A DNA stretch of 64,000 nucleotides from Pyrodictiaceae archaeon. GTDB lineage: Archaea > Thermoproteota > Thermoprotei_A > Sulfolobales > Pyrodictiaceae. The stretch is taken from NCBI GenBank assembly GCA_027036135.1, contig JALVSY010000007.1, positions 516,880 through 580,879 on the forward strand, read 5' to 3'. Shown here in pieces: positions 40,480 to 41,107 of the stretch (positions are counted from its first letter, which is position 1; each line of letters opens with the position of its first letter). The position numbers and the translations under genes are program-made. The notes under the pieces are model-generated. The model had not been told where the DNA came from. It did not search any database and was given only the letters and a program-made list of their open reading frames with translations.

Positions 40480-40574
40480 TTGAATACTATGGGGATAGGC
40501 TTATATAGAAGACTATAACCTATACTAGCCAGGAATACAGAGTAGCAATACTCCGCATATAATGGTGATATAAA

Positions 40575-41107
40575 ATGGTAGATGATATATATATATATCT
40601 AGGAGAAAATTTCTAAGCGGCCTCATTGCCTCATCAGCTTTAGTATTTCTATCCCCTATAGTTTCAACCGCTAGAAGTCTTAAGCCGCAAGAAAACGCTG
40701 GCCTAAAGATTGAAACCTCTATCGAGGGTGTGAAGGAATTTAACTTTGACCTCTATAAGCTACTCTACATAAAAAGCCATACCATAGTATCCCTTAAGGG
40801 ATTAAAGAAATATGATGCCAAGGTATCAGCTTTTACTCTAAGAGGCATTGTAAATGGTATGATGGAGCCTTCTATATTGTTTATAGATGAGAGCACTAGT
40901 GGTAAAACAACTATAATAGCCTATGCTGATGATGAGGAATACATGATAAAAAGCATTAATAAATCACAGCCTACCACTAAGAAAGTAATACTATCATTAC
41001 TAAACTCTATAGAAAGTGAAGCATCAAATAAAGGATTTAAAAAGCTAGTTAGATACATTGATATAATAAAGAAAAGTATAGAAGTAATTAAAGGTGATAC
41101 CCTATGA
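40575..41107 (+). pseudogene. Tat-signal protein, out of frame at an (AT)7 tract (possibly phase-variable)
   Basis: GGTGAT RBS then ATG 40575; removing one AT from 40585-40598 gives MVDDIYISRRKFLSGLIASSALVFLSPIVSTARS.. in frame with ORF 40730-41107. Confidence 0.75.
40585..40598. repeat. (AT)7 microsatellite
   Basis: ATATATATATATAT between the start codon and the SRRKFL codons. Confidence 0.9.

Follow-up and report, generated by a model that had tools for sequence, protein, structure and literature searches.

In a hydrothermal-vent archaeon, the first gene of a four-gene cassette is thrown out of frame by AT repeats located behind its start. From comparisons of sequence, we consider it fairly probable that slipped-strand changes in this (AT)n tract act as a contingency switch on that gene, which opens a radical-SAM peptide cassette of YydG-like type. 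The window, meaning the whole 64-kb stretch of DNA that we analysed (G000:C7:516880-580879), belongs to a 2.2 Mb draft genome of 40 contigs that is 99.6% complete. The genome is archaeal, as its full-length Rfam archaeal SSU and LSU matches beat the other models of their clans. Features of the locus are collected in Table 1, where n denotes the number of AT units.

Table 1. Features of the tract and of the cassette that it heads (window positions)
Feature	Position	Strand	Basis and remarks
Low-GC island with four-gene cassette	40480..42960	+	30-37% GC vs flanks of 55-60% (composition profile, ORFs)
Shine-Dalgarno-like GGTGAT	40564..40569	+	5 nt before ATG1, 12 nt before ATG2; pairs with 16S 3' end
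ATG1 and 13-codon frame MVDDIYIYLGENF* at n = 7	40575..40616	+	Translation; stop TAA at 40614-40616
ATG2 and 6-codon frame MIYIYI* at n = 7	40582..40602	+	Translation; record P0028 begins MIYISRRKF
(AT)7 tract, variable element	40585..40598	+	Sequence; gapless in contigs from 4 runs
RR-motif protein, open frame (P0001, 173 residues as translated)	40586..41107	+	Start-less at n = 7 until GTG 40730
Codons S-R-R-K-F-L, twin-arginine motif	40598..40615	+	Translation
Second GGTGAT	41093..41098	+	5 nt before ATG of small ORF
Candidate precursor peptide, 86-aa ORF	41104..41364	+	Acidic N-terminal, hydrophobic C-terminal part; ATG overlaps upstream stop (ATGA)
Radical SAM/SPASM enzyme, YydG-like	41368..42387	+	Pfam; TIGR04078, 97.7 bits; PDB YydG, E 2.5e-18
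193-aa membrane protein, bacterial PH (bPH_5) domain	42380..42961	+	Pfam

The tract joins or separates two starts and the twin-arginine codons

The 16S rRNA of the same genome ends in ...GGATCACCTCC, with which the Shine-Dalgarno (SD)-like GGTGAT at 40564-40569 pairs. Seven bases separate the first start (ATG1, 40575) from the (AT)7 tract. The frame that carries the twin-arginine codons (the RR frame, 40586-41107) reads YIYISRRKFLSGL... / YIYISRRKFLSGLIASSALVFLSPIVSTARS... and runs on through the ORF at 40730-41107. Upstream it is closed by a TGA (40583-40585), which is overlapped by a second start, ATG2 (40582-40584), in the third frame. The original prediction had named the GGTGAT, the ATG at 40575, the short peptide that follows from it and the (AT)7 repeat, and we see all of them in the sequence. 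It had also proposed that (AT)6 would restore the frame to the RR motif; this is borne out, and the tract does sit between the start and a canonical S-R-R-K-F-L.

Frame arithmetic on the sequence sorts tract lengths into classes: (i) n = 0 mod 3, in which the RR frame is joined to ATG1; (ii) n = 2 mod 3, for example n = 5 or 8, in which it is joined to ATG2; and (iii) n = 1 mod 3, in which the RR codons match neither start. The present n = 7 belongs to the third class, the sole OFF class, and is one unit away from either ON class. The ATG1 product predicted for n = 6 is MVDDIYISRRKF.... Because ATG2 brings a second length class into frame and leaves only one of the three unreadable, the locus is not a simple two-state switch. 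The earlier statement that no other in-frame start precedes the motif thus holds at n = 7, but not otherwise, since ATG2 at 40582 is in frame at n = 5 or 8. As in known contingency loci, a pure repeat of a non-triplet unit lies in the 5' coding region, and changes in its length toggle between the full frame and an early stop. One practical consequence is that gene callers truncate both this gene and its paralog (described below) to internal starts, and the signal peptide is lost.

Long AT tracts are scarce in this genome. Its 2.2 Mb hold eight (AT)5, no (AT)6, one (AT)7 and three (AT)8 tracts, and two of the four tracts with n >= 6 are those of RR genes, one in the window and one on contig C30. 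Within the 64-kb window the tract is the only AT run of six units, and none of 100 dinucleotide-preserving shuffles (0/100) shows one; taken with the genome-wide scarcity, this argues that the tract is more than a chance occurrence. Other long simple repeats are few genome-wide (T17, (TTA)12 and (CAA)5), and a simple-repeat scan found no tetra- to hexanucleotide arrays in the genome. The T17 and (TTA)12 repeats are at G000:C7:347214 and G000:C25:653. An (AT)8 at G000:C16:479248-479263 is part of an AT-rich spacer, ~58 nt ahead of the ATG that opens a small membrane-protein ORF (MLIGKKTIATIVIV...); judging from this position, it could act as a TATA element or as a repeat that sets promoter spacing. 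The fourth long tract, an (AT)8 outside the window (G000:C7:60372-60387), lies in AT-rich DNA and adjoins no long ORF.

A paralogous cassette carries a tract at the same codon position

Contig C30 of this genome bears another cassette of this kind, and the two RR proteins are 37% identical by search and 40% identical in alignment. The DNA of the C30 paralog consists of a GAGTGAT-type SD, an ATG, 7 nt, (AT)8 and then SRRKFISGL codons. Its tract is at the same codon position as the (AT)7 of the window and is likewise out of frame; the ATG frame stops after 30 codons, and the proteins are otherwise intact. As the paralog has a single start, it would be ON only at n = 0 mod 3, and its n = 8 is an OFF length. 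The tract is pure in both copies despite a protein identity of only 40%. Both islands contain an RR protein, a small ORF (86 or 111 aa), a radical SAM/SPASM enzyme (339 or 341 aa) and a bPH-type membrane protein, with the order of the last two genes swapped between the cassettes.

Tract length differs among near-identical sequences

We compared the tract with those implied by related protein records; the in-frame n = 5 and n = 6 alleles described here are deduced from protein N-termini, not read from the DNA of those records. Five sequences make up the 90% cluster of the window protein. Two (P0003 and P0027) are called from an internal GTG and two (P0029 and P0030) are fragments, and P0028 (173 aa), which departs from the window protein at two residues, begins MIYISRRKF, as encoded by ATG2 followed by (AT)5. 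In the cluster of the C30 paralog, P0004, P0031, P0032 and P0033 are all called from an internal ATG. The remaining member, P0034 (186 aa), reads MLKPLGDERRVIMLTDIYISRRKF (...MLTDIYISRRKF), which implies n = 6, as DIYIS requires (AT)6. Its residues before the tract match the upstream DNA of the C30 paralog codon for codon. Near-identical natural sequences, as deduced in this way, differ in repeat number.

Record P0045 represents a third homolog; its first residues, MIFHVKGYIYIS, imply an (AT)7 tract translated from a GTG start. In a contig of run X5 with the exact upstream letters of P0045, one more AT precedes the stretch aligned to the seven units of the window, and an extra AT unit in this contig is therefore likely, although not certain. 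P0005, a near relative of P0045, begins MPIYISRRKF and is another in-frame record; its tract length is not deducible because its upstream sequence differs. Three lineages thus have a pure tract at the corresponding codon, with N-terminal flanks that differ (MVDD, MLTD and that of the third homolog).

At the window locus itself, DNA could be read directly in contigs from four of four runs belonging to three studies: X1 (~74x), X2 (~749x), X3 (~5x, second study) and X5 (~11x, third study), of which X1 and X2 are possibly the source of the window DNA. All four contain (AT)7 without a gap. Because the same (AT)7 occurs in independently built contigs, an error in this assembly does not account for it. 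Directly read DNA has n = 7 throughout, including a strain that is ~5% diverged, in contigs that drop rare variants; all 12 listed runs are contigs, so minority lengths within a population would not show, and no RNA run is among them. A scan of genome, metagenome and viral contigs for related loci gave no match, and a degenerate tract-plus-RR pattern was likewise found in none of them; a tblastn search of phages and plasmids gave no match either. Near relatives of the window were possibly left out of these collections, and a word-based protein search returned only the queries' own clusters.

The proposal of slipped-strand phase variation has accordingly held up in part: near-identical sequences that differ in length and a paralog with its own tract speak for it, and ATG2 corrects the picture of a simple two-state switch.

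The RR-motif protein and its cassette

The gene heads a co-directional four-gene radical-SAM peptide cassette, in agreement with its earlier placement as the first gene of a peptide operon, and its stop overlaps the ATG of the next ORF (ATGA, 41104-41107), also as claimed. Tuning of precursor translation by this overlapping stop is possible but unsupported. The candidate precursor ORF has a GGTGAT of its own, at the same spacing from its ATG (5 nt) as that of ATG1. Co-folding of the mature RR protein with the 86-aa ORF gave a score of 0.02, which we take as neither for nor against binding.

The cassette's radical SAM enzyme scores 97.7 bits against TIGR04078, the NCBIfam model of YydG, which has a cut-off of 300. 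A PDB search gave the peptide epimerase YydG as its best solved relative (residues 4-321, E 2.5e-18). On these scores, the enzyme is a relative of YydG rather than an equivalog. At six of six aligned loci, the enzyme or the RR protein has a neighbouring ORF of 80-111 aa whose C-terminal part is hydrophobic; identity among these is only 16-26%.

Both cassettes (window 40480-42960 and G000:C30:284700-287600) are islands of ~2.5 kb whose GC content is 28-38%, against 49.7% for the genome as a whole. These low-GC islands, together with a family present in only one other genus among 401 genomes, point to acquisition from elsewhere, and the pattern suggests that the cassettes were then duplicated or were acquired twice. 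A minus-strand NAD biosynthesis cluster adjoins the island (window 37393-40072). Its NadA is confirmed by PF02445 (E 1.7e-101), and two ORFs beside it resemble NadC and aspartate dehydrogenase by eye only.

The RR-motif protein belongs to an unnamed family of 24 proteins of ~150-210 residues (E <= 0.001 in an exhaustive profile search). A profile search of the phylum (401 genomes) found the family only in the source genome and in five genomes of one other genus, and a single-protein search of 61 relatives returned only the source genome and one weak match. In the other genus, the N-terminus of the RR protein is longer and ordinary, with no AT tract. Four of these five genomes have the RR protein followed by a small hydrophobic ORF (80-88 aa) and a radical SAM enzyme; in the fifth, the enzyme comes directly after the RR protein. 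A bPH-like membrane protein lies beside the RR locus in all five, and a larger membrane protein found there matches Rce1-like/CPBP (one locus tested). The other genus also has a degenerate second copy (L015 1500-1915, genome G119), with an in-frame TGA just before TRRETL, more stops and a shortened C-terminus.

Tat signals consist of an S/T-R-R-x-F-L-K-like motif followed by an uncharged hydrophobic stretch. In the RR-motif protein, SRRKFL is followed by 21 uncharged residues, FLSGLIASSALVFLSPIVSTA, and the genome encodes Tat machinery: TatC (113 bits) and two TatA proteins (67.5 and 63.8 bits), all above cut-off. These features make the protein a predicted Tat substrate, and it may work together with the peptide that the cassette produces. 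The RR pair is present in five of five full-length homologs of the other archaeal genus. Across alignment A3 it stands at the aligned place in 9 of 22 rows; 12 rows lack it and one is N-terminally cut. A helix motif, SP[IL]xS[IL]AR ([AS]P[IL][LV]S[IL]AR; A3 columns ~65-86), is conserved even in the 12 of 22 members without RR, and a KDxxE motif further upstream is common to many members. Because conservation of the helix extends beyond that of an ordinary signal peptide, the helix may have another role.

The AlphaFold model of the RR protein is confident (pLDDT 90.6, pTM 0.80) and has an N-terminal helix (residues 2-29), a six-stranded antiparallel sheet and two C-terminal helices. Pfam and NCBIfam contain no family for the protein, and a PDB sequence search gave nothing better than E 0.73. 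All Atlas matches were under 0.9, Foldseek returned nothing at E <= 0.001 for the model, and the best VIA-align match had a Z of 7.0 (none >= 8), in the range classed as a common arrangement. Judged by this model, the protein is without a clear structural relative.

A model of the proposed switch

We propose that slippage during replication would add or remove AT units, each unit shifting the RR frame by 2 nt relative to two fixed starts. At n = 0 mod 3, the RR protein would be made from ATG1 with its well-spaced GGTGAT. At n = 2 mod 3, it would be made from ATG2, probably more weakly: lower expression would be expected because 12 nt separate ATG2 from the SD and the short ATG1 frame runs across it. 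At n = 1 mod 3, as in the present n = 7, both starts would give short peptides and the RR protein would not be made. From this state, one step down (n = 6) would lead to the ATG1 form and one step up (n = 8) to the ATG2 form. That length changes are frequent and reversible, and are used as a switch, is our inference.

Some further points favour the proposed slippage. We found no match to MutS_V in this 99.6% complete genome. NucS is present and is not known to act on insertion loops. In vitro, the archaeal polymerases PolB and PolD slip on repeats (PMC4134008). Against a switch, all DNA read directly at the locus has n = 7, and among the informative records those that look OFF, judged by internal starts, outnumber those in frame by two to one for the window gene and by four to one for the paralog. 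Seven or eight dinucleotide units, moreover, make a short tract. That both copies are OFF in this genome would also fit loss of function.

Selection on the out-of-frame gene and competing explanations

Record 13 of run X5 represents the strain that is ~5% diverged; it differs from the window by 48 substitutions, with no gap, over 40562-41552 and also has n = 7. Among the differences listed, at least 30 substitutions fall at 40639-41084, in 29 codons. Of the changed codons listed (40637-41086), the RR frame has 20 that are synonymous and 9 that alter the residue, and the same listed changes give 6/22 and 4/25 (synonymous/non-synonymous) in the other two frames. Ahead of GTG 40730, in the part that is translated only when ON, 7 of 10 listed changed codons are synonymous. 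The 77 bases at 40562-40638, which hold the SD, both ATGs, the tract and the RR codons, are unchanged. This pattern indicates that purifying selection acts on the gene, which is intact apart from its tract length. As two strains of OFF length have kept it as coding sequence, an old pseudogene is argued against, and coding-type conservation at n = 7 fits periodic ON phases or expression by another route. The strong synonymous excess would also fit constant expression by such a route.

In the same record, the whole spacer upstream of the SD (40465-40561) is replaced, with 99 letters for 97. The promoter seems to have been swapped as a block in the X5 strain.

These substitutions also weigh on the leading alternative, that the tract is a mutational hotspot with no switching function. 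The fragile tract would have knocked out the first gene of both cassettes, which would now be being lost, and the in-frame alleles elsewhere would be the surviving functional state. Both copies being out of frame in the source genome, internal starts called for most cluster members, n = 7 fixed in four of four runs including the diverged strain, and the other-genus relative that holds a degenerate copy with internal stops are all in keeping with it. We nevertheless regard a mere hotspot as unlikely, given the 20 synonymous vs 9 non-synonymous listed codon changes between two n = 7 strains (signal region included) and the stop-free remainder of both ORFs. A neutral fragile tract, moreover, would be expected to be broken by synonymous changes, and a pure one is kept in three lineages.

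Persistence of the out-of-frame state across ~5% divergence, with coding-type constraint on the frame, raises the question of whether protein is made from out-of-frame alleles by recoding or leaky decoding, either because the ribosome or RNA polymerase slips by 2 nt on (AU)n or because initiation occurs at an in-frame AUA. By arithmetic, a two-base shift would serve both copies (ATG1 +2 or ATG2 -2 here, -2 in the paralog). We consider such decoding quite improbable. In-frame alleles exist, so ordinary translation suffices; the two copies would need opposite net shifts; there is no Rfam match; and the RNA downstream has no stimulatory structure (z = +0.90; 162 of 200 shuffles gave folds as good or better). 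In theory, tRNAs on AUA and UAU would re-pair perfectly once shifted by two. A stronger form, in which out-of-frame n = 7 and n = 8 would be the working state and a programmed 2-nt slip on (AU)n would let tract length set the fraction of full-length product, is a little less probable again. If true, a programmed slip on (AU)n would be a dinucleotide recoding signal, in an archaeon.

Alternating AT resembles the archaeal TATA box. The tract could on that account be a promoter element, driving an internal transcript for a shortened, non-exported protein from GTG 40730 or for downstream genes, and its place inside an old signal peptide would then be incidental. The (AT)8 ~58 nt upstream of a membrane-protein ORF elsewhere in the genome and the internal starts chosen by gene callers point the same way. 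This reading is very improbable in our view: the stretch from the tract to the internal start evolves as coding sequence (the 7 of 10 listed changed codons above), the RR motif and hydrophobic helix are conserved between the paralogs, and the distance from the tract to the first internal start differs (~130 nt here vs ~40 nt in the paralog). Finally, dinucleotide runs can be miscalled and the genome is a 40-contig draft, yet a sequencing or assembly artefact that hides an in-frame tract, the error with a true (AT)6 that the original prediction had allowed for, is hardly credible when Logan contigs from all four runs have the same 14 bases without a gap and the paralog is independently out of frame.

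Comparison with known systems

Repeat-driven contingency switches are a textbook form of bacterial bet-hedging, studied mainly in host-associated pathogens, and repeat-length on/off switches are documented almost only in bacteria. In the lic loci of Haemophilus influenzae, tetranucleotide repeats lie behind several ATGs, and in the opa genes of Neisseria, CTCTT repeats lie in the signal peptide. The (AT)n locus resembles these in having a repeat just behind alternative starts, with repeat number leading to full, weaker or no translation. It differs from them in unit length, domain of life and gene function.

The cassette itself is comparable to yydFGHIJ of Bacillus subtilis, in that its enzyme matches the radical SAM epimerase YydG and a small ORF adjoins. 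Unlike yydFGHIJ, the archaeal cassette shows no YydH or ABC transporter. Conversely, we know of no counterpart in the yyd system of the RR-motif protein or the bPH membrane protein, and of no repeat switch there.

By analogy, the closest known case to the (AT)n tract is oipA of Helicobacter pylori. This gene has CT repeats in its signal-peptide codons; 6 or 9 units preserve the frame, other numbers destroy it, and length changes are ascribed to slipped-strand mispairing (PMC4225565). The two share a dinucleotide tract within the signal-peptide codons of an exported (here predicted) protein and the same proposed mechanism; oipA encodes a Sec-type outer-membrane protein of a bacterial pathogen, whereas the present locus is in an archaeon and has an AT unit and a twin-arginine motif. 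It also differs from oipA in that the gene heads a radical-SAM peptide cassette and that a second start allows the protein to be read in two of three length classes; switching at the (AT)n tract is a prediction.

Among archaeal systems, the virus SMV1 undergoes a reversible repeat expansion that its authors term phase-variation-like (PMC12199143). The likeness is a change of repeat number in an archaeal system; the expansion concerns a viral genome and a longer repeat element, with no frame switch of a cellular gene. We found no cellular archaeal repeat switch in full-text searches of open-access papers and preprints. Genome-wide repeat surveys do take in archaea (PMC3315296, PMC2831843), and a 2025 review names the archaeal distribution of contingency loci as future work (PMC11868660).

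If the tract is a switch, the mechanism would extend to a free-living vent archaeon that seemingly lacks MutS, and contingency would be tied not to surface antigens but to cassettes for peptide natural products. The locus would also be a compact test object, with two paralogous switches, one of them with two starts, whose states are readable from any deep sequencing run. Compared with the known systems, this one is new in its domain of life, its habitat and its gene class, in having two paralogous proposed switches, and in an AT unit that encodes (Ile-Tyr)n.
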